Below are positions 3,315 to 58,972 of a DNA stretch of 64,000 bases, in pieces (the stretch's first letter is position 1; each line of letters opens with the position of its first letter). The notes beneath the pieces are model-generated. The model was not told where the DNA came from. It made no database searches and saw only the letters and a program-made list of their open reading frames with translations. Position numbers and translations under genes: made by a program. Source of the DNA: Eledone cirrhosa (taxonomy: Eukaryota); NCBI GenBank assembly GCA_964016885.1, contig OZ024743.1, forward strand, positions 303,738,001 through 303,802,000, given 5' to 3'.

Positions 3315-4050
3315 TTAATTAGGTTTATAATATTTAAATGTTTTTTTTAGTTTATGATTACACGATATAATTAATTCCTGTCTTTTATTTAATAAGATAT
3401 CCCTAGACTTCATTATTTCAAATAGTTCTTGGGAACATAATCTACATTCCTTTCTATTATTTTGATAAGGGGTGGCTCTTTTGAGCACACTCCAGGTCAA
3501 ATCATATTTTATATTTTTATTTTTATAACTATTGATTTTTTCTGCTAGAGATGTTGTATTAGCCAGTGCGGCATTTTTAAAGCTATGTTTGTGGGTATTA
3601 TATCTTGTCTTAAAATTGTTAGAGGTAGCTCCTATATATGAGCAAATAGAATCTTTAGTTTTAACATTACATTTATAGACTATGTTGTTAACAAGACAAT
3701 TCCCTTTTAATGGGCAGTTTGTTTTGTTTCTACAGTTACATCCTTTCGTTAATTCTGTATTTGAGGAGATATTATTGTTAATTTGATGTACTGGTGGTAT
3801 ACTTATAGTTTTCTTACATTTATATGCATTATATGCACTTATATTTTGTTTTATGTTATTTGTTGTAGAATATGAGAATTTAACTGTAGACCTATTTAAG
3901 ATTTGATGGTATTTGTGGTTTGGCGGGAAGTTTTTCTCAAGGATATAAAAAAATTTTTTAGCAATATTATCCTTAACTTGTAAATTAAAAGGAGCATTAT
4001 ACCAAGTAACTCGTCTATTACGGTTTCTATGTTGTTTATTATTTTTATTA
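3315..4050 (-). pseudogene. Penelope-like element (PLE-1), 5'-truncated, GIY-YIG endonuclease region
   Basis: Minus-strand translation RRVTWYNAPF ... CNCRNKTNCPLKGNCL ... SYIGATSNNFKTRYNTHKHSF ... CRLCSQE ... LNKRQELIISCNH; disrupted upstream. Confidence 0.9.
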
Positions 4051-4210
4051 TTTTTATATGTTGTATCATGATTTTTACTAGGAGGAATAATGTTAATGAT
4101 CTCACCACAACTATTTTTAGTTATATTTGTAGATTTAGGTGTTTTATCTTTTTTATTAGGAGTTTTATTATTAATATTTATTATAGTCTTATGATGAGTA
4201 GTTTTTTGAG

Positions 4211-4740
4211 GGTTATATGTATATTTATATATATACGCACATGTATGTGTGATTATACTGATATGTGTGAGTATGAAAAAAATATATTTATATGCTTGAC
4301 TCCATAAGTATCATTGCGTATCTTATCAGCGCATTAAGCTTACAGAGATATTAACCTTGAAATTTTTTATTTGCATCCATCTTTTTAGTATGCACATACA
4401 GATTATACACACATTATTGTAAAATGTGTGTGGGGTTTTACATGTATATACACACACCAAACTGCTTTTTAACCCTTTGTGTTTTCATTGGTCAATTTTG
4501 AACTGATATTTTGAATTGTTGTTATTATCAATAAATATACTTCATTATTTCTGAAGACGGCGTATATATGAGTTAGGTATGTATATTTAATCTTGATAAT
4601 TTGTATAATTTTGTATAATTTTGTACATAGATCTGTTAAATATGCATACCAATTATAACACATATATGCCCTAGAAACGATCGTTAAATAGTGAACTTTT
4701 TTTGTTTAATATAAGGAATTGTTTGTTCATTATTTGTTTA

Positions 4741-6491: not shown

Positions 6492-8840
6492 TTAGCTGTA
6501 TACTTTATGCAATGTTCTGTGGAATTTATGCAAGCAGAGAGAAAACAAGTCAGTGCGTCTATCTATTATAGAATCTAAATTATAAATAATGGTAAAGTTT
6601 TCATTTAGACCGAGATTACACGTCTTGGATAGAGAACAGTTCAAGTATAACGAAGCAGAAGAAAACTTTTTCCAAGATATGTTATATTTAATATTTTTGT
6701 CTTTCAAGGACCATATGAGTTCTGAGAGAGCCGTGTTGGTTCTTTTAAGTTGGTATTTAAAAGACTAATGATGATTATAAAGACGAGCTTTAAAGGAGGT
6801 GGAAGTGGAGCCAGAATAGGTGAAGGAATTGGTGTCAATTATAACTTTACATTCGTAGATTAAGTTTTTATCAAGACAATGGTTGTTGAGAGGACATTTA
6901 TTTTTAACAGGGCAATTGCAATTGCGATTAGAGAGATTATTAACGGGTGACCTAGTGTTATCTATAGAAGGAATTGGATTGGAGAAGTTATTTGTGATAG
7001 GAATAATAGTTTCTTGATTTAGAATGGGATTAAGAACATTTAGCGAAGTTGTGTTTGACGTTGTATTTGGGTTTGCAGAAATTAGCCTAGAGTTTACAAT
7101 GACGTCGGGAGTACTATTACTATTATTATGATATTCAGTGTTGGAAGGAAGAGATTTAGTATTTAGTATTTTATTGTTGTGTTTAGAGATAATGTTGGAA
7201 ATGTTGGAGGATGTCGAATAGGAACATTTTATAGTGTGTTTGTTAAATATGTTACTATATATATGAAAGGGAGGGAAGCATTTATTTAAGGCACTAAAGA
7301 ATAATTTAGGAATATTATTATTAATAGAGATGGAGAAAGGAGCATTATACCAGATTATGTTTTTGTCTCTAGGTCTTTTATTAAAGTTATTGGAATGATC
7401 ATGATTTATTATTCTACTGTAAGATCTTCTAGAATTGTGTTTCTTTACTATATTTGATTTTATCAGGATAGCCGGCTTTAGAAAGCGCGTTATTATAGTA
7501 ATTGGCGTTAGCATCAAATATATTTTTATTAGAAGATAGGTTAGATATTCTTTTTCCAATATTACTAACTATAGCATTCTTAATATTAGTGGGGTGTTTA
7601 GATCTAAAATTAACATAATTTAGGTTCTCATTGTTTTTATGGTAAGGGTAGTGTCAAGATTAAGAGATACATCCAAGAAATTAGCTAGTTTGATGCTGTT
7701 ATCAAATTCAATTTTTAAGTTATGTTGGTTAAAGAGGTTACGTATATTGTTCTTAATAATATTAAGGTTAACTATGTTGCAATTTAAGATATTAAAGAGT
7801 CCATTGTCACGATAAATTCCACCGCGAAATTGAGGAATTTTCCGACTCAAAGAGTTCAAAATAAAGATACCAATTAAATCTGTTAATTGGGATGAATCGG
7901 ATGCTCCCATTGTGATGTCGAAGTTGGTAGAAGTATCAGCTCTGGTCCAATATTAATTGTTGAATTCTAGGATGGTTTTACGTGCGGTGAGAATGATGTG
8001 AAGTTCATCTGTGGTGATGTCAGAATATTTAAATGCGAAATATTTAAATGTTGAGAAGTGAAGGCGAAATAGAAGTTTAGTAGCTGGCAATATCAAATTG
8101 AACACATTTTAGTTTGTTTTTATTATTCAATTTGTTGAACCAGCCAATCACTTCAGAAGTACCAAACCATAAATTTAAGTTCAAAGATGGCTTTACTAAC
8201 AATCCTCAGATCTCATTTAGAGGGGGCGATTTATCTAACAGGTAGTTCAGTACGAAAATTGTTTTTGTGATCCTTGAGATTTATCCTCGGAGTTCTTGGG
8301 AGGAATGGTTCGGTCTTTTTTCCGATGCCAAGTTTTGACATAATCTCAGAGGCTTCAAAGTTTATGGATTCTAAATTATCATGGTTGGTTTTACGATATT
8401 TTTTCATAAGTTCCTTTAGGATAAGGTTGTTATAGTTATCCTTGGAAATACCATATAAATTATTGGTTTTGTCAGAGTGGACTAAAACTTTTTTTGAGGA
8501 ATTTAGGTTTGAAATTGTGTTCCTGAGATTTACAAGGTGCTCTTGTCCTTTGTAAGGGTATCTCTTGAATTTAAGATGTTTTATAATTTTTGTTAACTCT
8601 TCGTCGAATTGCACTAGATTTTTGTTGGAAGGAGGATTTCTTCTAGAATTAAATAGATGATCGAGGAAGTTATGTTCTTTGATATAGAGGTTCCCTTTTA
8701 GGCGCTGGTCATAGAAATAAGCTATCCATCTAAGTCTTCTTACAAAGGAGTCAGTTTTTTTCGATTAGAAGTTTAGTGAATTCAGATTTACCAGGTATAG
8801 GAATGTCTTTAGTTGAATTGGTTATATTGTAATAATCCAT
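6492..8840 (-). pseudogene. PLE-2 polyprotein (reverse transcriptase + GIY-YIG), frameshifted
   Basis: MDYYNITNSTKDIPIP start; SDKTNNLY; LKDHKNNF; FDITMGASDS; GIYRDNGL (YRDD-like); FLDVSLNL; IIWYNAPF; CNCPVKNKCPL; YSGSTSTSFKARLYNH. Confidence 0.92.
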
Positions 8841-10249: not shown

Positions 10250-11270
10250 CTCTTGAGAGTGGGGTGGTGTGTGGGAAGAGAGTTCCAAGGGTGTGTAGGG
10301 GAGTGGTGGAGAGACATATAGAAAAAAAGGGGTGAGACAAAACGGTACAAATGAAATTAAATATAAAAGCATAATCAAAATAAAAATTAATTTGAAGTAA
10401 AACAAGTGGTGGAAGGGTGTTGGGTGTATGGGGGTGGTGGCGGGTGGAGTCGTTAGAGGGATGCGTGGTGTCCGAGCGGGGATGGCTGAAGGTGGTGTGT
10501 GTAGGTGTACGTGTGTGTGCGTGTGTGTGTATGTGAAAGTAAGAGTCGGGGGAAGAACGGGGTTGCATGTTCAGGAAAAGGTGTGTGTGGGGTGGGGTGT
10601 AGGTCGGTGTGTGTGTGCGTGTGTGGATAGGGAGGAGTCAGAGGGGTGTGGGCAGAGGATTCCGGAGTCTGAGTGTGTAAATATGTGGTGGTGCGCACGT
10701 GTGTGGTGTTTATACGTGTCGTCGATATAGGTGGCGTGTAGAAAAAAACATTGTGTTGGGTGTATGGCCATGGATGGGTGCCTGAGGTAGTTCCGTAGAG
10801 GATGTGGTGGGCTGCTGGGTAATTTCCGTGTGATGTGGTGTATTCTTGTGAGCGATGTCCAATGTGTGTAATCCGTGGTTGTGTTGGTCGGAAGAGGGGA
10901 GATGTGGGGTGCGCGCGCAACAGGAAGTGGTCAGAGGGTCAAGGCAGGAGGAGGGTTGTGTGTCTGTGTGTGCGGAGAGGTGGTCAGAGATTCAGCGCAT
11001 AGCAGCAGTCGGGGAGAATGGTAAGTGAAGAAAGTCGGGATGTCAGTGTGTGCGGAGGTGCGGTGGACGGGGAAGAGGATGGGTAGGTGTGACAGTTGGA
11101 GTGTGGAGGGGGTGTGTGTGTATTAATAGAGGTGTTAGTGGGATGTGTATGTGTGAGAAGGGTGTGGGTGGAGCGGGGATGGGGATGGGGAGAGACAGGT
11201 GTGGGGGCCGGTGGCGGGAGTGTAGTGTACTGGTGTGTGTGTGCGTGTTTGGATGAGTGTGTGTGTGATA
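10250..11270. repeat. G/GT-rich strand-asymmetric low-complexity segment
   Basis: Many GT repeats and G-runs on the + strand; ORFs are H/T/P or G/V/C biased. Confidence 0.6.
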
Positions 11271-11282
11271 TATATATATATA

Positions 11283-12104
11283 TCTGTATATATACAAAAT
11301 TAAGTATGTGTGTATGTCTGTGTATTACCTATAGGGGCCTACATCTTACGACCGATTTTCATGAAACTTTACAGGCTCATAGATTTGTCATCGCGGAGCG
11401 TTTTCAATATATCAGCGTATCGTTTTTTTTTTTATTCCGGGGTCATTCTGCAGACAACATTCGATAGGGAGTGTCATATTTTTTTAGGTATCGAAAAATA
11501 AGATTGTTGTTTCTAGCTCCCACATTTTGCCACCGATGTCGTTCAAATTTTAATCAAAATATAATTTATCATTGCACATCCTGTATTGGCTTTATACTTT
11601 GCATTTGTCTTTCAGGGACGGCGTGGCAGCCGCTTAAATATTTAAAAAATACCACTTTTAGACTCAAATTTCCACTCTTTCGGCTCTAGCTCCCACATTA
11701 ATCAACGTACTTTGTTCAAATTTTAGACTACACTAGATCAGGATTATTTCACGTGTTAATCTGCCTTTATATTTTGCATTTCTTGTTCAGGAACGGCGGG
11801 GCAGCCGCTTAAATATTAGAAAATACCAGCTTTTCGGTCAAATTTCCGCCTTTTCCTCTCTATAACCTTTTTTCGGCTCTATAACTTTTTTCAACCGATT
11901 TCATTCAAATTCGAAACTCCCTCCCCCAGCATTCCCCTTCGTCAGTCATCCGCGTTTCTCAGTGGTAGAGATCATCACCACCCTCCCCGCATGGCCTGTG
12001 TGTGGCCATAGATGAGTCATCGAGAAGTAGTCGCTAAGATCAACACCCTTTCATCAAAGCAAATATTACTTTACCTACCCAGGCAACGCTGAGTACTGTT
12101 GCTA

Positions 12105-12105
<1 letters not shown>
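11283..12105 (+). mobile_element. Non-autonomous Helitron (~820 bp)
   Basis: 5' TC after A; 3' subterminal hairpin cccaggcaacgctgag followed by CTAG|T; internal ~170 bp subrepeats; 3' end resembles that of the 19153 Helitron. Confidence 0.75.
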
Positions 12106-12155
<50 letters not shown>

Positions 12156-12744
12156 ATTTGAAAGTTTGTTTATTTTGGGTTTTCCAGAATCGTTGTGTGC
12201 CACCGGATGTCGTATGTCCTGTAGTCGTGATATAAAAAAAATGATTTTTCTCAATTGTTTCTCATGGGTATTAATACATCTAAAGGCATTTTCCTATTAT
12301 AGCGTGGTCTTACATATAAGTTTCGGGCGTACTTAGGTTCGGGTCGCTGATGGCCCGGGGTGTAATTTTGTTACTTTGTGTGGGTTGGGGTCTACGATTT
12401 TGGAACAAGTTCTGTGTGGGATGTGGTCTACGGATCGGCACCTGTTTGTTTCAGGGGGCACTCGCGCTTTTTCAATGGGGTTATAGTTTTGTCTGTGGAT
12501 TCTGGGATTATTCTCATAGTTTTTTTTCTGGGAGTATGTTTGATGTTTGTATCTTTTTTGTTGGTTGTTGTGAGAAAATCACAAACCCTCCATCTCAATT
12601 CTACTTTTGAAAAGCATAAGAAATATGAAAGCGGTAAAGGTAATAAATAAATATTCTTAATAAAACTCCAGATGCGTTTTAGATCTATTTTCCTCTTACT
12701 TTCACACATTGATCGCTCGTATACAGGAAACTGACTGGCCAGTG

Positions 12745-12842
12745 TGCTGATATGCAAATTTGGATGATCAGTGGATCTGCTAATATGCAGATCTGACAGA
12801 TCAGCCAGTCTGCTAATATGCAAATCAGGCTGATCAGTCACT
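12745..12842. repeat. Three ~33 bp tandem repeats containing ATGCAAAT/ATGCAGAT
   Basis: ctgctaatatgca(a/g)at... repeated; gives the DLHIS repeat in ORF 12428-12841. Confidence 0.6.
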
Positions 12843-13167
12843 GTATATTTTAGAAAATATCATATATGTTCACTAGCTCTGACAGTGTGCAGGTGAACAA
12901 TGATTAAGCGTAATACCCAGACACATTAGTGTCAGCAGATGTGTTTACATGCCAACACGGGAGCAAGAATTATGGGCTCATTCTACTGACAGCTTTAACA
13001 ATGAGGATTGTTTGCATTATTACAAACGAATCGAATATTATTTTTCATATTCCAAAATCTCAGATTATATTTATATGTATATATATATATAAGCTGAAAA
13101 AAAATGAAAACGAAATTTCATTTCTCACTCTTAGTATGGCACTTACTTAAATCTGGCAGATGGGTAA

Positions 13168-13210
13168 ACGGTGCTGATGATAGCTAACAAGCTTGAAACT
13201 AGTACATCGT
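13168..13210 (+). ncRNA. Minimal type I hammerhead ribozyme, intact core
   Basis: acggtg-CTGATGA-tagctaacaagctt-GAAA-CTAG-TA-catcgt. Confidence 0.85.
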
Positions 13211-13399
13211 TCCTGTGTCAGTGTTGAACAAAAAGGTGACGTGGTTGCCTTAACACCGTATGGCATAAATTCAGGCTGTTCAGTTTGTTGACAAACGAAC
13301 AAAGCGGCGTTATAATAAGCGTCCGCTAAACTGATGCGTGCATATATGTATGTGTACCTGTATGTATATATATATATTCTCGATAAAAGCACTGGATAT

Positions 13400-13442
13400 G
13401 TAGTCCTGAAGATTTCTAATAAGAATGAAACGCGTAGATTAC
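13400..13442 (+). ncRNA. Minimal type I hammerhead ribozyme, copy 1
   Basis: gtagtc-CTGAAGA-tttctaataagaat-GAAA-CGCG-TA-gattac; outer extension ctcgataaaagca/tgcttttatcgag. Confidence 0.85.
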
Positions 13443-13709
13443 TTCCCTTGCTTTTATCGAGAATCTAATTGTAATACGTGACGTATTCTATTCTATAGCG
13501 ATTAGGTCTTCAAAATGTTTATTATAAACATACAGAATATTTTCGAATATTCTATGTCTATATTCACATATATATCGCTATTTCAGAGCATTTATTCCAA
13601 TTTCTAATTTCTGCCGGACCGGCAACCGCTCTTTCAAACCAGTTCCTGTACACAGCTAAGTATTCTATAAGTCTCTAGCTGTGTCATTCTCGATAAAAGC
13701 ACTGGATAT

Positions 13710-13752
13710 GTAGTCCTGAAGATTTCTAATAAGAATGAAACGCGTAGATTAC
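13710..13752 (+). ncRNA. Minimal type I hammerhead ribozyme, copy 2
   Basis: Same sequence as 13400-13442, offset +310. Confidence 0.85.
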
Positions 13753-14019
13753 TTCCCTTGCTTTTATCGAGAATCTAATTGTAATACGTGACGTATTCTA
13801 TTCTATAGCGATTAGGTCTTCAAAATGTTTATTATAAACATACAGAATATTTTCGAATATTCTATGTCTATATTCACATATATATCGCTATTTCAGAGCA
13901 TTTATTCCAATTTCTAATTTCTGCCGGACCGGCAACCGCTCTTTCAAACCAGTTCCTGTACACAGCTAAGTATTCTATAAGTCTCTAGCTGTGTCATTCT
14001 CGATAAAAGCACTGGATAT

Positions 14020-14062
14020 GTAGTCCTGAAGATTTCTAATAAGAATGAAACGCGTAGATTAC
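14020..14062 (+). ncRNA. Minimal type I hammerhead ribozyme, copy 3
   Basis: Same sequence as 13400-13442, offset +620. Confidence 0.85.
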
Positions 14063-14215
14063 TTCCCTTGCTTTTATCGAGAATCTAATTGTAATACGTG
14101 ACGTATTCTATTCTATAGCGATTAGGTCTTCAAAATGTTTATTATAAACATACAGAATATTTTCGAATATTCTATGTCTATATTCACATATATATCGCTA
14201 TTTCAGAGCATTTAT

Positions 14216-14252
<37 letters not shown>

Positions 14253-14487
14253 TGCTACTATACGTCTGTATACATGTATGTATGTACGTATACATACATA
14301 CTTCAATTTAAGTAAGTGCCATAATAAGAGTGAGAAATGAAATTTCGTTTTCATTTTTTTCAACTTATCGTTTTCGGTATGCCTGACCGATTTAACTCAC
14401 TCAATATGCAAATTAGGCTGCTCAGCCGTTAATTTTCATAAGGAAAGTATATACTTTCGAACGTTCAACTATCTGGCAGATGGTTAA

Positions 14488-14530
14488 ACGGTGCTTATGA
14501 TAGCTAACAAGCTTGAAACTAGTACATCGT
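14488..14530 (+). ncRNA. Hammerhead motif, core mutated (CTTATGA)
   Basis: Homologue of 13168-13210 with G5->U. Confidence 0.65.
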
Positions 14531-14680
14531 TCCTGTGTCAGTGTTGCACAAAAAGGTGACGTGGTTGCCTTAACACCGTTTGGCATAAATTCAGGCTGTT
14601 CAGTTTGTTGACAAACGAACAAAGCGGCGTTATAATAAGCGTCCGTTAAACTGATGCGTGCATATATGTATGTGTACCTG

Positions 14681-14736
<56 letters not shown>

Positions 14737-14784
14737 TGCTACTGTACGTCTGTATACATATATCTATGTACGTATACATACATA

Positions 14785-14837
<53 letters not shown>

Positions 14838-17417
14838 TATACATATATGTATGTATATATATATGTATGTATATTTGCATATATGTATATGTGCATATAT
14901 ATATATATATGTGTGTGTATGTGTATGTATATGTACATACATATGGCGCTCTGAAATAGCGATGAACATATTAATGTACACAATGTGTATTTAACAGTAT
15001 ACGTTATGTTTATGAAATGTTGGTAACATATAGTAACCTCTGTTACATGCGTCCTCCATCGCATTACACCAGAGAATATTCAGGAAAAAAAGACTTTAGC
15101 CTACCAAATACCTGAACTTTATACATATGACCCATATTCTTATTTTAGCAAGTTTGGTATTTGTAGGTATAATTTCTGCCGGATATGAATCGTCATATAT
15201 TTTGCCATCGACAGCTTAATGTCTTCTGCACAGACTATACGTGACAGAAATGATTGCTTACCACTTCCAAAGTTACGAAATCGTTTATAGCTCTTCACCA
15301 GAAATTAATTCGTAAAATAAATGTCACAATTCCTGAAATAGATTCCATTGAGTTTCGATCATATGATCTGATAACGACCTATAATGTATATGAGAATTAT
15401 TGTCAGAACAACATTCAGTCGAGTACTTGTTTTTTTTTTTCAGGTTTTTTTGTCAATCTGAGACGAAGCGTTACATTAATTATTGAATAAGACCTTGGGT
15501 TTGTTCATAAATATTAATTTTCTTTACATAGTTATCTTGCACCCTCTTAACATGTGTTAACATATCGATATTATGAGATAAGTAGTAAACATCGGTGGTT
15601 TGTTATTATTGTCAACATTTATTTATATAAACATTTATACAGAAAGGAATACATTTGTATGAGGTGTGAAAAAGACATTAATTTTATTTTGACAAATTCA
15701 TTTAATCACCGTCAAATTACTCACCTTGGGAGATTATGATAGTCTCCCAACTGTTGTGTCACGGTTGGTAACACTTCTGGAATGCTATGGAGCTCCACCA
15801 TCACTTTTTTCCGGAGCCTGTCGAACAAGTGTTGTTGTTCTCATCCAGGATAGCTTGGATTATATGGGCGGAGTGAGTGTTCGCAATCACGCGGTGAAGT
15901 TGATAAGTATTTGCCGCCCACAAGTCCGGTAGTATTCCTTATTGATTGTTTGGCTTTGTCGAGCGTATTCATGATGCAAAAACCAAAGGGTGACAAATAT
16001 ACATGCCAACATTACCTTTGCATTGCTGCGAACCTGTATTATTCAAACGAGAAAACTTATTTCTAGTAAATATATAAGATAATTATGTATGGCGAAGGCT
16101 TATGAGGCTTCTCAGTTCTGAATTTAAAATGTTATATATGCAACACTTTATAATCTTCTAGGATTTATCACGTTTAATAAACCGTGTGAGACCAACAACG
16201 TATTTTGAGGTGAATTAATGGACTATATATCATACTTTTAGAGGAATACGTTAGACATATTATAATATATCCAATTAAGTTTCCCCATTTAATACAAGAT
16301 TATTTTATAAGAAAGTCGAAAATAAAAGAAGGATTAAAACAAATACTCTATTACGAATAGCGGCAGCGTATTCGACCACTTATAATTTAGATTATTGCGT
16401 CAATACGTAAGATTAATTAAGCCTTCATCAGCAGTATATATGTCCCTTTTCATTTATTTTCTTTCGTAGGAAGACAATGGAAAATCGGATGTCGTCTTAA
16501 AAATACATTCGGCTTCTTCGGCTACTAGTCTCCCTATTATTTGCTCTAAGGGATACATGTTAACCTTTACTTAAAGAAAAATATATGTTGCTTGTCAGAA
16601 GTATTCAATGTGTGTGGGAAGATAAGGCCAGTGCTTATATTTCTTATTTAAAACGGTTAATATAATCCTTATATATTACTATCATTTTGCAGTAGCTGTC
16701 ATGACAGCAGACATTATATCAAGTAATACATTCTCATTTATGATTATTTACTAAGTCTATTTTTGCTTATTCAGTGAGTGGGAAAAACATACTATTTCGC
16801 AAGTACATCTGTTTACTTGCATAAACAGAGATTTTGACGTATTGTAGAAATATTCAATTTTCTTTTTCAGTTCATTATTTGGTAGACATGTCTGAATAAA
16901 TTATACCACCAAGCGAACTGAGATGCAAAATACATTGTTTCGTAATGTCTATATTCATTTCTTTCTCTGTCTATAAATATGTAACTTTTGTGGTCATACG
17001 TATGTGTCGGCATCATTTTTTAAATGTTTTACTCGCAATGTTCCCCTCATATCATAGTACAAATTTCGACATATAATGATGAAAGTATTGTCTAGTTAAT
17101 TTTATGAACCTATAGGTAATTTTTTCCAAAGACGTTTCAGAGTAAATTGAGTACCAAGTTAGCTGACAAATAGACCATGTATATTATAATAAATACGGGT
17201 ACACAATTAGAGGAAAAGAGGTTTAAATATCACTCATCATTTTAAGAGTTCCATACTAAACACGATGGAGGTCTAAAAATGCAGATCGGGAAGAATGCTC
17301 CCATTCTTGTAATTTGAGTGAATTTGTGGCAATTAAACACCACGCCTTCGAGGCAAGTCTCCGACATAACTGCGATGTCACATTTGGTCCTTGTGGTCAA
17401 TAACATTAATTGTCTAT

Positions 17418-19152: not shown

Positions 19153-22104
19153 CTAGCAGATGTACCCGGCGTTGCTCGGGGTTTGAAATTATGCTTAGAA
19201 TATACAGCTTGGAAGTAAAAGAGGAACATTATTTGTCCCCAACCTGTCAAAATAAGCAGAAGTCTTCAATAATTAATGCAAACGAATATTTAGTGCAATC
19301 GTTGTACACATAAAACTATGCTGATAATGAAGTAAAACACTGAACAGGATGTAGTTATACAAATGATTAAAGACAATACACGTTGCAAATCTGTAAAAAA
19401 ACAGGCAGTTTTGCTAAAGTACAAAAAGTTGTAATGAAAGCAGAGTTGTATACAAACAATGAGAGTAGAATAAGAGAAAATCTATTCTTTAAGAGCATCC
19501 TTTGCTGTGTATGGTTACATTTTTAACTTATAATCCTAAATATCCTGCATGACATATTCATTGGTATGTTTTGTAATGAGTAAGGTGAAGTCAAGGCAGA
19601 GTTGTAATAAGTCTTTTTGTTAACACTAAAGCACTTCAGGATAGACGATATTCTTTGTTTTTCTTTTCGGAACAAACACAAAGAGATTATCTCGACTGCC
19701 AACTCGTGAGCAGGCAACGTAGAATTGTCCATGCGAAAAGCAAGGTTCATCAAAGTGAATTCCAGCAACGGACAGAGTTTGACTTTGCGACTTGTTTATG
19801 AACATCGCAAAGGCACCACGAAGGGGAAATTGGGTTCGGCGAAAGGAGAAGGGAGTATCAACGCCTTATGTAGTCAGGCTAATTTTTGTTATTGTCACAT
19901 CCTCGCCTTTTCCACATCCGGATAAAATGGTAGCGTCAATACTAAGTGGAGACAGATATTTAACCACAAGGCGTGTACTATTGCATAGATTTGGTGGAGT
20001 GATATTTCTCAGCAAAATAACTGGTGTTCCCACTTTCAGAACCAATGTATTAGGAGGTAAACCAGGAGGATTTAAAGAATTTAGAAATCCAACTGGATAA
20101 TTGACCGCATCCTGTGGATCACATACAGTATCAATAGATTTATATATCCCTGGACATCCAAGAAGAAGATGAAGAAGCTGATCGTAATAACCGTAAAAGT
20201 TTTGGTTGCATGAATGGCTCTTTCGCACAGCCAATCAAGATTCGTATAGTTATCGCGCAAGTTCGGGAATACACTCAGCTTGAGATCATCGACAGTTTCA
20301 ACTACATTGCAGATTTGATCAATTGCTATGTGTCCATCTGTATCTGGAGGTAGGTTACCATCTCCGATTGTAAGAATTTCTCCAGAAAATGTGGATGACA
20401 GAGGTTCACCATGCAACCTTGCACGCATGTTGGTAGTTAGTCTTAATGGGGTCATTTGTCGCCACAATGGTGAGGACTTAAGACATGCATTTACCGCATA
20501 TGCTCTTGTTCCTTTCGGTATTATATGAAGAGTCTGTCCGAAATCTCCTGATAGCAGAAGGGTGATACCCCCCATAACATCATTGCAATCCCGTATGTCT
20601 TGCAAATACCTATCTAGTGCCTCAAGAGCACCTTTGTGTGCCATTGTGCACTCACCCCAAACAATAAGGTGACACCTTCGCAGCAGATGAGCCCTTTCGG
20701 AGTCTTTGGTTATATAACAAGTAGGAGTTTCCAATTTTGCCAAATCAGGGGCAATTTCAAAACTGAATGTGCCGTCCTTCCAGCAGGGAGCAAATTGTTG
20801 CGATTCCGGAGGACGCAAATGCTATTGCTATGTCTTTATTCTGTCAAACCTTTGCAAGAAGAAGTTTAGTAACGAAAGTGTTTCCTGTCACGCCTGGAGC
20901 ATCGAGGAAAAATATGACACCTCTTCTTTGAAATACCAATTCAGTAATGGTGGCATAAGCCAGTCGCTGATCAGCTAGAAGTTTTGGCTCATTATCTGAG
21001 ACGTAAAGGCCAAGATCATGGATGTCATAAGACGTCTCTTGTATGATATCTGTGGGAAGTTTGTTTGAGTCTGTGCGATGAGTTTCTTGTAAACCGTAGT
21101 AACGTAAAACCTTTCCTCCAATCAGAGTTAACTTGTCCTCAATATCAATGGGAGCTCTGTTGTATAATTCATTACTAAAGCCGACCTCTATTTCTGGAAG
21201 CAGCAATTGTGTTTGGTGTCTGTAGTCGTCTGTTAGTTCATCCCTATATTTCATCCACAAGGACAGAGGGTCAAATAAGTTGCACGAGTGCAAAAGTACC
21301 GCAAATAAATTTCTTAGGCTGGCAGGTGAATGTGAAAGAGAAACTTCCGCCATCACTTCATCCCACTGCGAACCATCTTCCAGCAATCCACGCCTCAAAA
21401 ATGCCTTTGTGCATGTTGGAAGAACTTGTCCGTCTAACGTTCGGATACCATAAAAGCAGGTAGGTCCTCTGACCACATGTAGTAGCATGCGAAGATGGAA
21501 GCACACGTGTTAGTTTGGGGGCACAGTATAAACTCTGCCCAAGCACTCGTTGAACTTGATGCCTGGATAACTTCGACACACTGTCCTTTTTTTCTGCGCT
21601 TCCATGTATTTTTCCCAAGTATAGTAATATGGGACTTGTGGATAAAGTAAGGTTTTAGCAAATGGATCTTGATATATTTTAAAGAAAACGGTAAGAGTAG
21701 TATCCTTTGGTTCTAGTGCTAACTGAGCAGCTGATGCATTCGTAAAATATACTCTCTGAACGTTCTCCAGGTGCATTTTAAGTTTTTGAACAGCAGGATG
21801 CCGTTGATGGATAAAAAATTCGAAAATTGGCCAGAACGCTTGACAAGTTGTTTATCTCCCTTTTTGTATAAGGATTGTCAATAAAGTTTGTTATCTCCCT
21901 TACATCAATTTTTCTACCGATAATTTGATATCGATTGTTATTGCTCAACGTGGGCCGATTTGAAAAATGTTTGTGATGTGACAATCTTAGCGACCGGTGC
22001 AACGTGCATAGAAAATTTGGTCAAATTCAGTTGGTAATTGTGAAAGCCTTAAGCATGCAAAGCTGTACACAGACACACAAAAATTCCACGCTTTAATATA
22101 TATA
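19153..22104 (-). mobile_element. Internally deleted Helitron
   Basis: Minus-strand 3' end cccgagcaacgccggg hairpin + CTAG|T at 19153; TA-rich 5' end near 22100 (approximate); PIF1 helicase relic inside. Confidence 0.85.
19480..21776 (-). pseudogene. Helitron RepHel PIF1 helicase region, frameshifted
   Basis: HLENVQRVYF; LRMLLHVVRGPTCF; FFLDAPGVTGNTF (Walker A); LIVWGECTM; LLSGDFGQTL; LRLTTNMR; GLPPNTLVLKVGTPVILLRN. Confidence 0.92.
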
Positions 22105-23641: not shown

Positions 23642-24521
23642 CAACCCACCAAATCTCCAACAACTCACGACGCCTCCAACCCACCCATATAGGAGGAGAC
23701 GCAGAAAAATCACGTGGTACAACCCACCCTACTCTTCGACCCTAAAGAACAGCTTGGCTCGATCATTCTTTGGAGCACTTGATAAATGCTTCCCGAGAAA
23801 CCATAGATAACACAAGATATTCAACAGACACACTGTGAAGCTCTGGCATTCCACCACGAGAAATCTGACCCAACACATAGCTAGCATCAACAGGAGTAGG
23901 CTTAAAAACCACCCCCAACCAGAAGATGGCAATACAAGCACACAGCAGAACCATGTGGAAGGAGAGAAGGGGGGACCCAGTGCCCACCCAATAAATCCAA
24001 ACATACCCGGGGACACCCCACCGTGCCCGGGGGAAGACCACCATGTAACACTTAACGTGAACCCCACTCTAGGCACGCAGGGGTCGACCACCCTCTCCAA
24101 CTGCAGAAACCCCGAATCATGCCTCCTTAGTAATGAATACCTTAAGAAGAACCTAGTATACGGTTGTAGGGTTAAAACCCCCAACTCCGAACACCTCTAC
24201 ATAGGAGCCACATCAACGAGCTTTAAAGACGGTTGGTATAACCATCGCCATTCCTTCAATAAGGAGGCCAAAACGAAAAGTACGGCTCTCTCCGACTTGA
24301 TCTGGAAGCTTAAGCTGGACAGGACCCCGTACTCTCTGGCCTGGTCCATAATCAGGAAAGTACCACCCGATAAAGGGGGATCTGGCATATGCAAACTATG
24401 TCTGAACGAGATCCTCGAGATACTAAGAGGTGGAAGCCGCCTGATAAACCTCAGAACCGACTTCTTCGGGACATGTAGACACCTCAGGGCCGGGACGTTC
24501 GTCAAGATATATGGACAGTAG
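23642..24521 (+). pseudogene. PLE-3 GIY-YIG endonuclease region
   Basis: RRKITWYNPPYS; LDKCFP then stop; NCRNPESC; LYIGATSTSFKDGWYNHRHSF; STALSDLIWKLK; CKLCLNE; CRH. Confidence 0.9.
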
Positions 24522-34696: not shown

Positions 34697-34764
<68 letters not shown>

Positions 34765-34792
34765 ATTTATATATATATATATATATATATAT

Positions 34793-34856
34793 GTAAGTAT
34801 GTATGTAAGTGCCATACTAAGAGTGAGAAATGAAATTTCGTTTTCATTTTTTTCAA

Positions 34857-34860
<4 letters not shown>
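34793..34860 (+). repeat. Fragment of the ~430 bp HHR family
   Basis: aagtgccatactaagagtgagaaatgaaatttcgttttcattttt. Confidence 0.7.
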
Positions 34861-34916
<56 letters not shown>

Positions 34917-37747: not shown

Positions 37748-38300
37748 AGTTCCTGGGGTGTTTGCACTATATAAAACAGTTCCATTAGGCAGTGTTCAGT
37801 TTTTTCTGAAATTATATGATGGAGCTCGGTTCATAATTTTCCATTGAGCGGTGTAGCTAATGTTAGAGTCTACTAATTGGGTAATATAATTAGCGATGGA
37901 AGTAGAGTATCTAAGCGCTTGCTATTCCTAAAAGAGTGGAGATGCGCTCGAAATCTATTCTTGAATGCCCCAGAAGTAGCTCCTATTTAAGATTTAACAC
38001 TATTAAACTCGTAACCGTGCATCTATAGATAATATTTCTAGTTAAGCAGTAGCCTCGGAGTGGAGAGTTGACAGGGTTACGACAGTTGCAATGTGTTTTG
38101 TTGTCACCTCTAAGGTGGTGAGGGCTGGTGTTAAACCTATTACTATTATTATCTCCATCACCATACCTGCCATTATTGTGGTTGGCGTTATTATAGATAC
38201 AAACACACGAAGTGGTGCTATCTCCACTTCTTGTGTTATAGCGTCTTCTACAGCGGTTGTAATAGCCGATATAGTTTTTAACCCAACTGCTTGGATAACG
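37748..38300 (-). pseudogene. Penelope-like element (PLE-5), GIY-YIG fragment
   Basis: CNCRNPVNSPLRGYCLTRNIIYRC ... S*IGATSGAFKNRFRAHLHSF ... CKHPRN*. Confidence 0.85.
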
Positions 38301-38303
38301 TTT

Positions 38304-38745
38304 CTATAAGTATCCAGCTTCTATAAGTTACTGTTAGATTCACTCCCTTCTTTCGCCGAAAAGAAGTGACACGGTCAGTACTTTAAAACCGATAGCGTAT
38401 GGTCTATACCATACATACATTCATGTATGCATCGCGCTCTCGGAGCACCAATCCTAATACCTAAATTTTGCTGGACCGGCAATCGCTCTGTATAATCAGC
38501 TCCTGATTATTACTGGAATACTATAAGGATCATCCAGCTTCTATCATTTTCGCTGAAGCAGGGGGAGCGTGGCTCTGATGAGCTTCTCTCCCTTCATTCA
38601 CCGAAAAGAAGTAAGTGTCATAGTTACTTCTTTAAGACCGATAGCGTATGGTCTTCTAAATGTGTTTAATTAAAGATACGGTATATTGCCAAATATACTA
38701 TATATACATTCATGTATACGTTGCTATTTCAGAGCACCAATTCTA
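38304..38745 (+). mobile_element. Diverged relative of the 310 bp HHR repeat, abutting the 5' end of PLE-5 in inverted orientation
   Basis: Shares ggaccggcaa.cgctct, atagcg..tggtcttc, gctatttcagagca; CTGATGAG at 38575 but GAAA/stem III deleted. Confidence 0.65.
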
Positions 38746-38971
38746 TTATATATATATATATATATAAGTATGTACACGTACATACATATATGTATACAGA
38801 TGTACAGTAGTATGTATATATATACATACATGCACACAAATATATATATGTACGTATGGATTTAACGAACATTTATTATAATGTTTGGTTTGTTTGTAAA
38901 CAAACATCACGAATTAACACGTACAATGTTTAGCAACTATCGTTGCCCTTTTGTTCAACACTGACAAAGGA

Positions 38972-39014
38972 ACGATGTACTAGTTTCAAGCTTATTAGCT
39001 CTCGTCAGCACCGT
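38972..39014 (-). ncRNA. Minimal type I hammerhead ribozyme, intact core
   Basis: acggtg-CTGACGA-gagctaataagctt-GAAA-CTAG-TA-catcgt. Confidence 0.85.
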
Positions 39015-39406
39015 ATACCTTCCTGCCTGATGATTGGACGTCTGAAAGTATATACTTTCCTTATGCATATTAACGACTGAGTAGCCTAATTTGCATATCG
39101 AGTGAGTTAATCGGCCGGGCGCACCGAAAACGATAAATGGAAAACATTAAACGAAATTTCATTTCTCACTCTTAGTACGGCTCTTGCTTAAATATAAGTA
39201 TGTACACGTACATACATATATGTATACAGACCTACAGTGGTATGTATATATATACATACATGCACACATATATATATAAATATATGTACGTATGGATTTA
39301 CCGAAAATGTATTATAATGTTCAGTTTGTTTGTAAACAAACATCCCGAATTAAGCCGTACAGTGTTTAGAACCATCGTTGCCCTTTTATTCAACACTGAC
39401 AAAGGA

Positions 39407-39449
39407 ACGATATACTAGTTTAAAGCTTATTAGTTATCGTCAGCACCGT
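39407..39449 (-). ncRNA. Hammerhead motif, GAAA mutated to TAAA
   Basis: acggtg-CTGACGA-taactaataagctt-TAAA-CTAG-TA-tatcgt. Confidence 0.65.
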
Positions 39450-39846
39450 ATACCTTCCTGCCTGATTATTGAACGTCTGAAAGTATATACTTTCTTTATG
39501 CATATTAACGCCTGAGTAGCCTAATTTTCATATCGAGTGAGTTAATCGGCCGGGCGCACCGAGTACGATAAATGAAAAAAATGAAACGAAATTTCATTTT
39601 TCACTCTTAGTACGGCTGTTACTTAAATATAAGTATGGACACGTACATATTAATATGTATACATACGTGCAGTAGTATGTATATATACACATACATGCAC
39701 ACATATATATATGTACGTATGGATTTACCGAACATTTATTATAATGTTCGGTTTGTTTGTAAACAAACATCCCGAATTAAGCCGTACCGTGTTTAGCAAA
39801 GGAAAGTATATACTTTCAGACGTTCAATCATCAGCCAGGAAGGTAT

Positions 39847-39889
39847 ACGGTGCTGACGAAAGCTAATAAGCTTGAAACTAGTACATCGT
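39847..39889 (+). ncRNA. Minimal type I hammerhead ribozyme, intact core
   Basis: acggtg-CTGACGA-aagctaataagctt-GAAA-CTAG-TA-catcgt. Confidence 0.85.
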
Positions 39890-40274
39890 TCCTTTGTCAG
39901 CGTTGAACAAAAGGGCAACGATGGTTGCTAAACTCTGTACGGCTTAATTCGGGATGTTTGTTTACAAACAAACCGAACATTATAATAAATGTTCGGTAAA
40001 TCCATACGTACACATATATATGTGTGCATGTATGTATATATATACATACTATTGTACGTCTGTATACATATATGCATGCACGTGTACATATTTATATTTA
40101 AGTAACAGCCGTACTAAGAGTGAGAAATGAAATTTCGTTTAATTTTTTCCATTTATCGTTTTCGTTGCGCATGGCCGATTAACTCACTCGATATGCAAAT
40201 TAGGCTACTCAGCCGTTAATATGCCTAAGGAAAGTATATACTTTCAGACGTTCAATCATCAGCCAGGAACATAT

Positions 40275-40317
40275 ACGGTGCTGACGATAGCTAATCAGCT
40301 TGAAACTAGTACATCGT
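40275..40317 (+). ncRNA. Minimal type I hammerhead ribozyme, intact core
   Basis: acggtg-CTGACGA-tagctaatcagctt-GAAA-CTAG-TA-catcgt. Confidence 0.85.
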
Positions 40318-40645
40318 TCCTTTGTCAGTGTTGAACAAAAGGGTAACGATGGTTGCTAAACACTGTACGGATTCATTCGGGATGTTTGTTTACAAACAAA
40401 CCGAACATTATAATAAATGTTCAGTAAATCCATACGTACATATATATATATATATATGTGCGCATGTATGTATATATATATACATACTACTGTACTCATA
40501 TATGTATGTACGTGTACATACTTATATTTAAGTAACAGCCGTACTAAGAGTGAGAAATGAAATTTCGTTTAATTTTTTCCATTTATATATATATATATAT
40601 AAGAAGAGAATTAGAGTTTAGCTTCAAGCATAGATGTATACAGAT

Positions 40646-53234: not shown

Positions 53235-53456
53235 GAAGAGGAAGAGAAGAAGGGAGTACTCACTGTTGGTGCTCCTGGAGATGAGGGTTGTACATTTATT
53301 CGGGGTGTGTACAACCCCTGTGTAACGTCTCCCCCCTAGTGGGGATTTCAATTGTTATTTGTTATTTTATTAATAGTTTTATTTTCATATATGTAAACTC
53401 CCCATTTGTATGTGTCCCCTTCTTTTGTGCCCTTGTGGCTAATAATGAAATGTATC
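53235..53456 (+). mobile_element. Short L1/Tx1-like LINE 3' UTR fragment in (TCTA)n
   Basis: Homologous to 54375-54590; ends cccttgtggctaataatgaaat+tatctat. Confidence 0.7.
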
Positions 53457-53457
53457 T

Positions 53458-54590
53458 ATGGTGACGAGATCCCTCTGCTGTCAACACCCTTCGAAAAGAG
53501 GGCTGAGGATGCCGTGGCTAATGATGCGTAAACACGCATTAAAGCTACGGCACCTCCACGTATTCCTCACAGGTCAACCGGTGTGGGCCCCGTTTGCGAG
53601 ACCAACCTTTCCCAGATTCGTCTCACTCACTGAGCTGCAATCCTGGGTCAAGCAAAGACCGAGAAAACTGGGCGCCTGGCACACTGACTGTGCCCAGGTG
53701 CTCAAGACCCGGTGGCAGGCGGATCCGGTTATCAGTGGAGACTCCACCTCGACATTCTATAGAGGGCCGGTACGACGATGCCCTCGGAGAAGCCATAGAC
53801 ATGCAGGAAGACGAACTGGACAGCCTGTTCGGTAGGACATTCAGCCCAGGACCTATAGACAACTTCTAGAAGTCCCTGTCCTGGCACTGCTACCGAGGGG
53901 CTCTACCCGTTCGAGAAAAGCTCTACAGACACGGGCGACCGGGTAGGGACCCCGCCAAAAAGATCTGCCCCAGATGCGTGTGCGACGAGGAAACCGTTGC
54001 ACACGCATTGGTACACTGCTCGGGCGTAGCCGATCTGTGGGGCTATGTCGAACGACTGCTGTCACGGGTGGGACCGATCCGGTTGACCACCGAGGCCATT
54101 GTAACGATTAAGCCGCCTCCCCCCGTCAAAAATGAAGGAGAGAATGTGTTTCTGTGCGTAATAGCCATGGTTGTATGGTGGACGCGTCTGAAAGGACTGA
54201 GGTCAGGCAGCTTTCTCTCTGGCCAACAACTGATCCGTTGCTTCCGATATCATTTCGGAAGAAGGATCAGGATGGAGAGAGAGTTGCTCCATCCCAGTCG
54301 TTTTTATGAAAGGTGGTGAAAGTGCCGAGAATGGCCCGTGTGAATGGGCCTTCTCTCTACATCAGCCTGTAGGTGGAAAAGATGAAGGAACGAAGGAGCA
54401 TCCTCTCTCTGTGCTCCTGAGTTGAAGGGTTGCACACTTTTTTCGGGGTGTGTGCGACTTCCGAAAACGCCTCCTCCCTATTGAGAACTTTATTATTAAT
54501 TTTACATTTGTAATTTGTTTTCCTTACTCGCCTTTTTGTGTATATGTATTTGTCCCCTTCTTTTGCGCCCTCGTGGCAATAAATAGAAAT
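53458..54590 (+). mobile_element. 5'-truncated L1/Tx1-like LINE (C-terminal zinc-binding region + 3' UTR)
   Basis: KSLSWHCYRGALPVREKL; CPRC..ETVAHALVHC; VVWWTR; tail runs into (TCTA)n. Confidence 0.8.
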
Positions 54591-54699
54591 ATATCTATCT
54601 ATCTATCTACCTGTCTGTCTATCTATCTACCTACCCATCGATATATCTGGTTGACTGCAATCCCTAGTTATATTATTTAACTTTATTCATCTATGTATT

Positions 54700-57290
54700 A
54701 TCTTCGGACAAATAAAGCAATAAAGAAAACAGATAAAATGCAATATAAGTCCTCAGTTTTTCCGGGGATAATATCGACCATACTTAAATATGGAATGATA
54801 CGCGATGGGGCCTTACCGCAACCCCGGCGGTCAGAATGGAGAAGGCATAACCCTGTAGGACGGCAAGGGAGACGCGCTGGAAAAGTCACTCCAACTCGCG
54901 GGGCTCACACCTGCGGCTGGCCAACTCAGCGCCTATGGTAGGGAGTAGGGAGGTAGCCCTAGGGTCGAGTACACCAGAAGTCTCCACTGCAAGGGGTATA
55001 ACCGCAAACCTGTCAGAGAGCGAACGATATTTGAGGAGTTTAACCTCCTCAGCCCGACGTGCAGCAGAACACGGGTTCATCGCAGACTGCACCAGGTTGC
55101 AGCTGCAGAAAGTGGCGGTGCAAGTGGCATCCCAGACGAGGGGTTTGCCACCGCGGAACGAGAATATGGTCATGCCACCTGGCCTTTTGCCGTCCCCTCG
55201 GTCCAGCCCCACAGCCTCGAGCTGGAAAGAGAAGGTTGCAGCGTCTAAGCCAACGTTTACGTCTTCGTTGAGGGCAGCATGGCGTGGAAGGCGACAGGAA
55301 TGCGGGTGGAGGCCGAAAGTGTCCACGGTGGATCCGCAGCGATATTGGTGTGGCTCGCAGTTCCGGAGGCCGAGCCATAAGGAAACGCCGATGCGCAGGC
55401 TATTGTAGTTCTTAGTGCCAGTGGAGAAGGAGGGTAGGGCGTGGAGCCAGGCACGTTTGTGGGGTTGGGAGGCCGCACGAAAACAGGCAAGTCTGTGCTG
55501 TTCGAGCTGGCATGTGAGCTTGTCTGAGGCCAAGCTGCACTGTATGGCTTCCCAAGTGCTTTGGGGTGACTTGACATCAAGAGGGGGAGAAGGAGGAGGG
55601 ACGTCTACTGGGCTAAGTTGCAGCCGGTCTCACGTCTCACAGGCAGCCTCATGTTCTCTAAACACAGAGGGTTCTATTGTGTTTAGAACAATAGAACCCT
55701 CTGTGTATAGAGAACCCTGCTGACGAGGACGTGGCAGGAGCTTACCGACGAAAGATACGTTGGCAAAGCCAGTGAGATCGGGGACCGGAGGCCAAGGCCG
55801 CCATAACTGAAATATAAAGTGGCCTGTTGCCATACAATGACGTCAAACTTGACGTTGCATATCTCCTCGGCTTCTGCTCGGATACAAGTATCGAGGTCAA
55901 CGAGGAGAGATGAGTGGGCGTAGCACGGAGCGCTGCGAAGGGCATAGAGGAGCTTCGGCATGGCAAAGCAGTGCCTCAACAGAAAGAGGGCTGGGGGGCC
56001 GTCGATCAAGCCCAGTCGGCTCGTGAGAGTCTGGTTTTGATGAAGCCTTGACCTGATGATGGAACGGATGGCCGGCGCGTGGATCGGTGACACGAGAGGA
56101 TATGGACACCATCTTTGGGGGTCACCTGTACTTGGTGGAGGATGAACCGCGCGTCCCAGACGGAGGCTGCAAAGCTCTCGGCTGACATTCACCCCCTCCG
56201 ACTTGGCGGAGTTGACCTGGATGCCGATTCCCGGCAGGGCAGAAACCACTGTTGTAGTTCATGGCAGACAATCTGTACGGACCCGCCCAACGTTGCATCA
56301 TCCAGATACCAAACATTGAGGGGGGCGTGATACACCGGGCGATGTGGTCTATAACAAGGGTAAACGGGATGGGTCAAAAGGGTCGCCCTGTTGGACCCCA
56401 GTGGCCGAACGTATGACCGTATCAGCAGCAAGGAGCATACTTCGTGCTCCATACGACAGGTAGGCCAGCGGGTAGGCAACGTGGGCTCGGCTGAGGGAGG
56501 TATCGAGCAGATGGTCCCGGCGTAAGCAGTTGAAGGCATTCCTCATGTCAAGTTTGACAATGAGGTGCGTGGAGTCTCTGGATGCTGGTTTCGGTGGGCA
56601 GCTGTTGAATAACTGTCTGGCTGCATGTCCGACCTCCTCACAACCACCGGACACGCCGACACCCAGTTCCACCGGACTGAACTCCTCACCCAGTTCGGGT
56701 GTTTTGGACCTGCAGACCACCTTGGCAGCCAGCCTCCGGAAGACATTGCCCACAGCGACGGGGCGTATGCCACCCTCTTTCTTCCTGTAAGCGGTGAGGC
56801 TAGCCGAAAAAAGAGGCCCCGGGCGTTAAGGTCGAGGTTGCCATGGCTAAGCCATGGGGTGAACGCCACGATAGCACTCAGAAGGCGGAGCCCCGCCTCA
56901 GCGGTGAGGGTGATAGCAGCTCCCTGAGGTGGCCTGGTCGGAGACCATCAGCACCGCCGCGACTGCTAGCTGGGAAGGACTTGATCGCGGACATGATGTC
57001 TGCATCAGAAGCCACAAGTGGGTGTCGGGTGGGTGTATGGGTCTGCGATCAGCGGGTGGCTCAGGGTGCTTGAGTCGCAGGGCAGCCAGGACCTCCTCGG
57101 TGGGTTGTAGGACAGTGTCCTCTGAGGCAACGCCTCTGACTGATGCCGAGACATCACCCATGTTTAATTTAGTATTTACTCGTCGCGCAAATGCTTGGCG
57201 CTGGCCTCAGGGTTGGAGGATTGGGGATACTCGAGAGTGGGGTGTATGGTGTCTCTAGGCACGCTTGTAATGGGTGCTTGCCCAAAGGAC
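54700..57290 (-). mobile_element. CRE-like non-LTR retrotransposon (RT + restriction-like endonuclease), frameshifted, 5'-truncated
   Basis: GNVFRRLAAK; LGVGVSGGCE; KLDMRNAFN; GVQQGDP; WYLDDATLGG; YGGLGLR; RHAALN; DGKRPGGM..WDAT; AEEVKLLKY; PLAVETSG. Confidence 0.9.

Positions 57291-58895: not shown

Positions 58896-58897
<2 letters not shown>
57900..58897. mobile_element. ~430 bp HHR family, array 3: minus-strand unit then ~1.3 plus-strand units, head-to-head
   Basis: Orientation switch near 58330; HHR relics at 58137-58179 (minus, core TGGATGA) and 58648-58690 (plus, CTGATGA..GAAA-CTAG-AT, U16.1 lost). Confidence 0.85.

Positions 58898-58972
<75 letters not shown>

Follow-up and report, generated by a model that had tools for sequence, protein, structure and literature searches.

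A young, dispersed family of hammerhead tandem repeats in Eledone cirrhosa inserts with the marks of Penelope-like elements

Family A, a 310-bp non-coding tandem repeat with a hammerhead ribozyme in every unit, is dispersed in the genome of Eledone cirrhosa and very young. It probably spreads as a monomer RNA circle that is reverse-transcribed into (TA)n tracts by a Penelope-like element (PLE) enzyme. Retrozymes are known as a class, but their life cycle is still a proposal; family A gives countable genomic marks of its steps, namely a pair of fixed start sites with one for each arm, a single haplotype in each insertion and a ribozyme under selection. One array lies in the 64,000-nucleotide stretch analysed (the window; Table 1), and what is new here is the insertion anatomy of 84 other family A insertions.

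TRF reports the array in the window (13376-14221, plus strand) as a tandem repeat with period 310, 2.7 copies, 100% matches and 0 indels. An exact period-310 self-match spans the same positions, 536/536 bases are identical between units, and the 2.73 units show no difference among themselves. The unit has no ORF of 100 aa, and the G+C content of bins around the array is 32 to 36%. Like other family A arrays, it adjoins (TA)n directly on both sides and has no flanking LTR. The (TA)n tract belongs to a unit of an older hammerhead repeat, family B, and the next family B unit carries a paralogous empty site (about 14685-14732). The microsatellite target makes it impossible to read a TSD. The first-pass annotation had described about 2.7 identical, non-coding copies with an exact 310-bp period, inserted in (TA)n without a clear TSD, and all of these points stand.

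Family B, with units of about 435-476 bp, a CUGAYGA core and ACUAGU as its palindromic stem III, is itself found in tandem and inverted copies. Its internal (TA)n tracts are insertion targets of younger elements.

Table 1. Features of the family A array, its host element and related elements (positions are those of the window unless a locus, L, is given)
Feature	Position	Strand	Remarks
Whole family A insertion	13376..14221	+	single-arm (non-inverted), 5'-truncated; 2.73 identical 310-bp units; unit position 1 = 13376
Unit 1	13376..13685	+	
Unit 2	13686..13995	+	
Partial unit 3	13996..14221	+	unit positions 1-226
(TA)n target, left portion	13365..13375	.	
(TA)n target, right portion	14222..14249	.	
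Host element, left (family B)	13089..13375	+	inverted 64-bp head 13089-13152, then 13151-13375; intact CUGAUGA core at 13174
Host element, right (next family B unit)	14250..14700	+	about 476 bp; mutated core at 14494, empty (TA)n site thereafter
Type I hammerhead 1	13400..13442	+	stem I 13400-13405/13437-13442; CUGAAGA 13406-13412; stem II 13414-13425; GAAA 13427-13430; palindromic stem III ACGCGU 13430-13435; predicted cut after 13436
Hammerhead 2	13710..13752	+	predicted cut after 13746
Hammerhead 3	14020..14062	+	predicted cut after 14056
Outer stem, 16 bp	13376..13464	+	13376-13391 with 13449-13464; encloses ribozyme; present in each unit
Predicted cut-to-cut monomer, 310 nt	13437..13746	+	folded as circle -67.8 kcal/mol, z -4.2 against 100 shuffles
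Proximal end zone	14181..14195	+	unit positions 186-200 (mostly 191, 200), over internal AT run; in one arm of every resolved inverted insertion
PLE-type tail	14187..14221	+	about 26-35 nt; motif common to sister family C; ends at distal site, position 226
Family B copies in window	13089-13375, 14250-14700, 38762-40600, 57900-58980, 34717-34884		
Sister family C	38250-38750; L157-L186		different, often decayed ribozyme
Hydra-type PLE	L282:5464-7737; L257-L287	minus	abundant; about 5.4-6 kb; 758-aa frame; hammerhead resembling that of family A; tail about 65 nt
Very young PLE family	3315-4310; L141-L155	minus	many identical 830-aa frames; 6.2-kb tandem period; long (TA/TG)-rich 3' part
Two further Hydra-like PLE families	23811-24521 (plus), 6765-8764 (minus); L115-L140, L207-L231	plus, minus	own hammerheads
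Young PLE family	L232-L256		longest frames about 900 aa; tandem period 3.13 kb; numerous identical copies

A genome-wide copy search, as proposed in that annotation, with 37 nt of the core in the window's variant as query gave 1,527 exact matches in the 3.0-Gb genome, and a reversed control gave 0, so the array in the window is not an assembly artefact. The head-to-tail joint is also present in contigs from public runs. Exact junctions of the distal end (unit position 226) with (TA)n number 1,030 genome-wide, and exact proximal junctions, which lie 26-35 nt upstream of the distal junction, number 1,240. By these counts, which rest on exact patterns, family A comprises at least about a thousand insertions, with 1,500 as a rough estimate. 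Among about 675 units of 82 insertions, 93 single-unit variants were found (0.44 per kb); assembly polishing can homogenise tandem units, a caveat on identity within arrays. The predicted recent activity of the family is thus supported by low divergence and dispersal, and the tandem non-coding unit, the hammerhead in each unit and the dispersal support its proposed status as a non-LTR retrozyme. Of six public runs, all of unrecorded kind, four were assembled, and three of these gave a single closed 340-nt contig of the unit. This was rejected as a sign of circular RNA, as low-depth tandem DNA gives the same result and family B is present too.

The ribozyme was called by motif scan and folding, since the Rfam models miss the motif. 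Type I cores (CUGAAGA...GAAA-CGCG-UA) begin at 13406, 13716 and 14026, that is, in 3/3 units, each with a 6-bp stem I, a 4-bp stem II above a U.U mismatch, and the ACGCGU palindrome. This agrees with the intact CUGAAGA/GAAA hammerhead with palindromic stem III first read in each unit, and the cuts predicted then (after 13436, 13746 and 14056) coincide with those predicted from the motif scan, after unit position 61. The outer stem had been put at 13 bp; it is in fact 16 bp, plus a 3-bp helix, and is predicted to close the circular monomer. An Rfam scan of 11000-17000 (E ≤ 1) gave no match to the family A ribozyme, and the sole match in that region was a weak HH9 (18.5 bits, cut-off 52) on the family B ribozyme.

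Folding predicts that neighbouring ribozymes pair with each other. The fold of 13376-13470 has z = -6.44, and 0/200 shuffles fold as well. The unconstrained minimum free energy structure of 13376-13774, which holds two neighbouring ribozymes, is a double hammerhead with a 6-bp stem III (-109.3 kcal/mol; as two separate hairpins the stretch would have -100.4 kcal/mol).

Copies that spread keep the ribozyme fold. Across 82 insertions, substitutions at core or paired sites that are fixed throughout an insertion comprise 0 disruptive and 5 pair-keeping changes, versus 19 disruptive and 2 pair-keeping among single-unit substitutions (Fisher P = 3.2e-4). The same holds for the ribozyme proper (disruptive/pair-keeping, fixed 0/3 versus single-unit 11/1, P = 0.009), and when indels are counted as disruptive and set against all other variants (fixed 2/30 versus single-unit 24/69, P = 0.02). 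The most frequent inherited changes affect core position 35, which is variable, and loop II. The test draws its force from 5 inherited changes, and what it counts are distinct variants rather than independent lineages. Judged from these sequences, retention of the fold is easiest to explain if cleavage belongs to the cycle; binding of the fold by a protein would also account for the signal.

Insertion anatomy was read at loci that all lie within the first 154 Mb of one contig. The sample consists of the arrays under the first 100 of the 1,527 core matches, the first 58 of the 1,030 distal junctions, and 20 proximal junctions chosen so that none was already paired with position 226. By tiling, 67 of the 84 sampled insertions are head-to-head inverted pairs and 17 are single or unresolved arms. 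Among the 17, an edge or N interrupts 4, and the second arm of one (L190) measures 10 nt. The copy in the window is single-arm. Arm length ranges from 0.2 to 27.3 units (median 3.2, 153 arms).

Outer ends are always sense 3' ends and fall into two zones, one proximal (186-200, mostly 191 and 200) and one distal (218-233, mostly 226); 191, 200 and 226 are the commonest ends. They run into (TA)n in 141/147 cases. Each of the 63 pairs with both ends resolved has one proximal and one distal end (63/63), a count from which L203 was dropped along with eight loci, 4 inverted and 4 single-arm, that an edge or N interrupts. The rule does not depend on how a pair was picked: there was no second distal end in the 42 pairs found via a distal end (0/42), no second proximal end in the 11 found via a proximal end (0/11), and mixed ends in 10/10 of those found via the ribozyme, although two of these ten look like one duplicated event. 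We infer that the proximal zone is reverse-transcription start site 1, and that position 226 is start site 2, the one used by the copy in the window. Mobilisation by PLEs, which the first-pass annotation had suggested, finds its expected marks here: the targets are (TA)n, arrays are inverted head-to-head, and just one end has a tail. PLE-type mobilisation of family A is highly probable.

The inner ends follow no such rule. The inner 5' ends are evenly spread when sorted into 10 bins (P = 0.27), apart from a broad, mild bias around position 125 (Rayleigh P = 0.009), and 3/134 fall at unit positions 55-69, around the predicted cut, where 6.5 are expected. Inner breakpoints of the two arms are unrelated, with 4/67 pairs within 10 nt (4.5 expected by chance). 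Microhomology of 1-5 nt is present at 34/64 inversion junctions, a count that leaves out 3 junctions with gaps > 150 nt. Two loci carry an extra inner segment, L075 (1227-5951) with a duplicated inversion junction and L108 (4228-5951) with a second breakpoint inside one arm, which suggests template switches.

A cleaved linear monomer would limit an arm to at most 165 nt from the distal start, since 165 nt separate the cut site from that start. However, 140/153 arms are longer than this, the longest having 27.3 units, and arms run through the ribozyme cut site. Such a monomer could still be copied repeatedly if the enzyme jumped from its 5' end to its 3' end (a functional circle without ligation), and the inverted arm could come from fold-back self-priming (PMC3846280, from the text available). 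Either would likewise produce insertions of a single haplotype and place the ribozyme under selection. Jumping is at odds with the lack of a 5'-end excess at the cut site and of any fixed variant at unit positions 61-62. Fold-back predicts equal inner positions in the two arms, and the near-equal pairs noted above are no more frequent than chance, so this origin of the inversion was rejected. Taken as a whole this route is the most improbable of those considered.

Variation within and between insertions is informative about the template. Thirty-two distinct variants are fixed across whole insertions. Among insertions with at least two units per arm, 40/41 have identical fixed variants in both arms, versus 72/820 between-locus pairs. 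There are 20 haplotypes in all, 14 of them seen once, and 102/107 arms of at least two units have no variant limited to some units. As variants are fixed in every unit of both arms of an insertion, new variants must pass a one-unit bottleneck, which is what rolling copying of one circle would give.

Exchange after insertion also acts, since a variant of L087 is confined to part of a single arm and 5/107 arms have scattered shared variants (among long arms, L063+64, L097 and L191). Such local exchange is what would be needed if short fragments of PLE ends inserted and then expanded in place as minisatellites through unequal crossover or conversion, a route discussed in the available text of bioRxiv 10.64898/2026.07.22.740005. 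It is nevertheless very unlikely to have made the arrays. Both inverted arms can be fixed for a rare variant (in L066, for example, in 18/18 units), the two arms combine independent inner breakpoints with fixed outer ends, and the dispersed arrays are long yet nearly free of mutation.

Two insertions, L073+74 and L093, have unit-specific variants that are mirrored, in the same order from both outer ends. In L073+74 the two outer units have one haplotype and the inner units another. Mirrored site calls number 7 (at these 2 loci) versus 42 that are not mirrored. A monomer circle cannot give mirrored variants, so both insertions require a multimer template; the pattern suggests that both primers started within the same unit of one RNA.

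It is therefore conceivable that PLE-type two-site insertion mostly uses an uncleaved linear multimer, the fold being kept for protein binding or late processing and circles being by-products. Besides the mirrored arms of L073+74 and L093, this fits with the use of unprocessed RNA by the PLE PAc in vitro (PMC11167929) and with the accumulation of linear multimers, among other forms, of axolotl retrozymes (PMC7229834), as far as the available text of both papers goes. As the general route it is rather unlikely. Mirrored variants are confined to 2 insertions as against the 32 distinct insertion-wide fixed variants, every one of which requires passage through a single unit; copying of a linear template cannot make arrays longer, yet there are arms of 27 units; and the double hammerhead is the predicted ground state.

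A monomer RNA circle is probably the main template. The first-pass annotation had taken the non-integer copy number as a sign of a circle, and this argument fails, as any multimer template gives the same. Copy number is not diagnostic because the 3' end is a fixed start (position 226) and the 5' end a random truncation. Better support for a circle comes from the absence of a 5'-end pile-up at the cut site, from the single haplotype of each insertion and from selection on the ribozyme.

The partner enzyme was sought among five autonomous PLE families, whose open frames measure about 890, 830, 808, 900 and 758 aa, although the genome has more PLE families than these. In comparisons by blastn and tail-motif scan, none of the five had the family A tail. 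The closest of them, the Hydra-type family with the 758-aa frame, shares only a 28-nt ribozyme core (25/28 aligned positions), and its tail sequence differs; it is a candidate partner. Its frame shows RW[K/R], DKT, CxCx5C and, at its C-terminus, GIY-YIG by eye (marks as given in the available text of PMC8557442), the Pfam GIY-YIG match being sub-threshold only (E = 0.019). A 33-nt stretch of its ribozyme has 3,910 exact matches in the genome, and 9/10 of its inverted pairs have one short and one long end, as in family A. A tandem array with a period of about 1.08 kb at L287 carries the ribozyme of this family and is possibly an internal-deletion derivative.

The two further Hydra-like families have stem III sequences that are also palindromic (AUAUAUAU and AUGCGCAU), so the palindrome is kept across unrelated sequences. 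No hammerhead was found in the stretches of the 830-aa family examined, nor did a motif scan match one at the 3' end of the family of about 900 aa. Pfam found no PLE family in 7 ORFs of the window. The window also contains a broken Helitron-like PIF1 helicase gene (19866-21851, minus; Pfam PF05970, E = 5e-30) and a G+C-rich region where both strands bear pieces of RT frames from non-LTR retrotransposons (53449-57258).

Sister family C is non-coding, about 320 bp in unit size, and larger and older than family A, with 1,064 tail junctions on the forward strand. It is 75 to 81% identical to the family A unit over parts of unit positions 120-300, and shares the tail motif and its end point. Given the different ribozyme of family C, the 310-bp unit may have gained its own from another element. 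At 21 loci with the family C tail motif the tail region is non-coding. L176 and L179 have PLE fragments upstream, but these were rejected as partners because they look like separate insertions. A single-copy sequence in the window (14940-14975, minus) has the 13-nt tail motif followed by a TA/TG repeat and is possibly an old remnant of the same group.

A cycle can be proposed from these observations. Arrays would be transcribed, and neighbouring ribozymes, paired through ACGCGU, would form the double hammerhead predicted by folding and in keeping with selection, releasing 310-nt monomers. A host ligase would presumably circularise these, as in known retrozymes. A PLE protein, most likely of the Hydra clade, would then nick both (TA)n strands, and the nicks would prime at 218-233 and at 186-200, flanking the tail; the anatomy is observed, the nicking a mechanism that would produce it. 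Each primer would roll round the circle to a random stop, and joining of the cDNA ends would yield a head-to-head pair of arrays with one haplotype. Failure of one primer would leave a single arm, as in the window copy, and a minority of insertions would come from uncleaved or multimeric templates.

We tentatively go one step further, at somewhat less than even confidence: the arrays may be footprints of rolling reverse transcription, with a dimeric Hydra-type enzyme gripping the 310-nt circle at its tail and priming both nicks at the flanking sites, one each. If so, this would explain how retrozymes move, why the ribozyme is under selection and why Penelope insertions have inverted ends with a one-sided tail. 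The signal would then be a tail held by a retrozyme family that is not a deletion copy of any current autonomous element.

By its sequence, family A is a non-LTR retrozyme, a class already known (PMC7229834, PMC7761336 and bioRxiv 10.64898/2026.07.22.740005, in the text available of each). Metazoan members from coral, mussel and axolotl (PMC7229834) and from vertebrates (bioRxiv 10.64898/2026.07.22.740005) likewise have a non-coding tandem unit of 150-450 bp with low G+C, one type I hammerhead per unit and coexisting PLEs; they have no LTR, PBS or PPT, and family A arrays show no flanking LTR. The stem III of family A, a single pair with a palindromic tetraloop, is like that of axolotl HHR_Amex1, and the U.U at the base of stem II is like that of HHR_Amex2 (both in the available text of PMC7229834). 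Its sequence is its own, unlike those of the non-LTR retrozymes described in these texts, and it is known here from genome sequence alone. A plant LTR retrozyme (type III hammerhead in LTRs, 4-bp TSD) was excluded, as family A has a type I hammerhead in tandem units. No prior description of family A was found in the literature searched, a scope with most subscription papers outside it.

PLEs have been named as candidates for retrozyme mobilisation (PMC7229834), on the grounds of co-occurrence and pLTR homology and, in the available text of PMC7229834, PMC7761336 and bioRxiv 10.64898/2026.07.22.740005, without analysis of junctions. The last of these calls the mechanism unresolved and reports cleavage of only 1/9 predicted dimers, and PMC7761336 describes, in the text available, non-LTR retrozyme repeats without a motif that points to a partner. 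The pairing of arrays in inverted orientation, the tail on one side and the choice of (TA)n as target are features of family A that have no description in the available text of PMC7229834 and bioRxiv 10.64898/2026.07.22.740005.

These features are those of PLE insertions, which have an inverted truncated copy and a tail of 30-40 bp, often at one end only (available text of PMC8557442 and PMC3846280), a tandem or inverted structure that PMC8557442 calls undefined. In PAc, two internal start sites flank the tail, cutting and extension take place on both strands of the target, and a dimer has been predicted; the ribozyme is dispensable for insertion in vitro, where unprocessed RNA is the main template (PMC11167929, in the part available). 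With Hydra-clade endonuclease PLEs and PAc (PMC8557442, PMC11167929), family A thus has in common a (TA)n target, tandem and head-to-head inverted insertions, a tail of 30-40 bp at one end, two adjacent internal start sites and a type I hammerhead upstream of the tail. Unlike Hydra-clade PLEs it has no ORF, a unit of only 310 bp and a tail without homology to the five autonomous families examined. It was rejected as an autonomous PLE, since the unit has no RT or GIY-YIG ORF and its arrays meet (TA)n on both sides. Strict proximal/distal pairing is a count made on family A, whereas PAc shows no strand difference in start site in vitro (available text of PMC11167929). Non-autonomous Chlamys PLEs such as MRC1 are also non-coding and make multicopy head-to-tail insertions through PLE machinery, but according to the available text of PMC8557442 canonical hammerheads are absent from them, and their 3' end is as a rule also that of a known autonomous family.

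One genome supplies both the 310-nt substrate and intact candidate enzymes, so that rolling reverse transcription of a circle can be tested directly at the bench. In twin priming of L1, both target nicks prime, and the result is a head-to-head inversion with 1-5 nt of microhomology. Family A shares head-to-head inversion with such microhomology. In contrast to L1, both of its start sites are fixed and separated by 26-35 nt within a repeating unit, and both arms may extend over many units.
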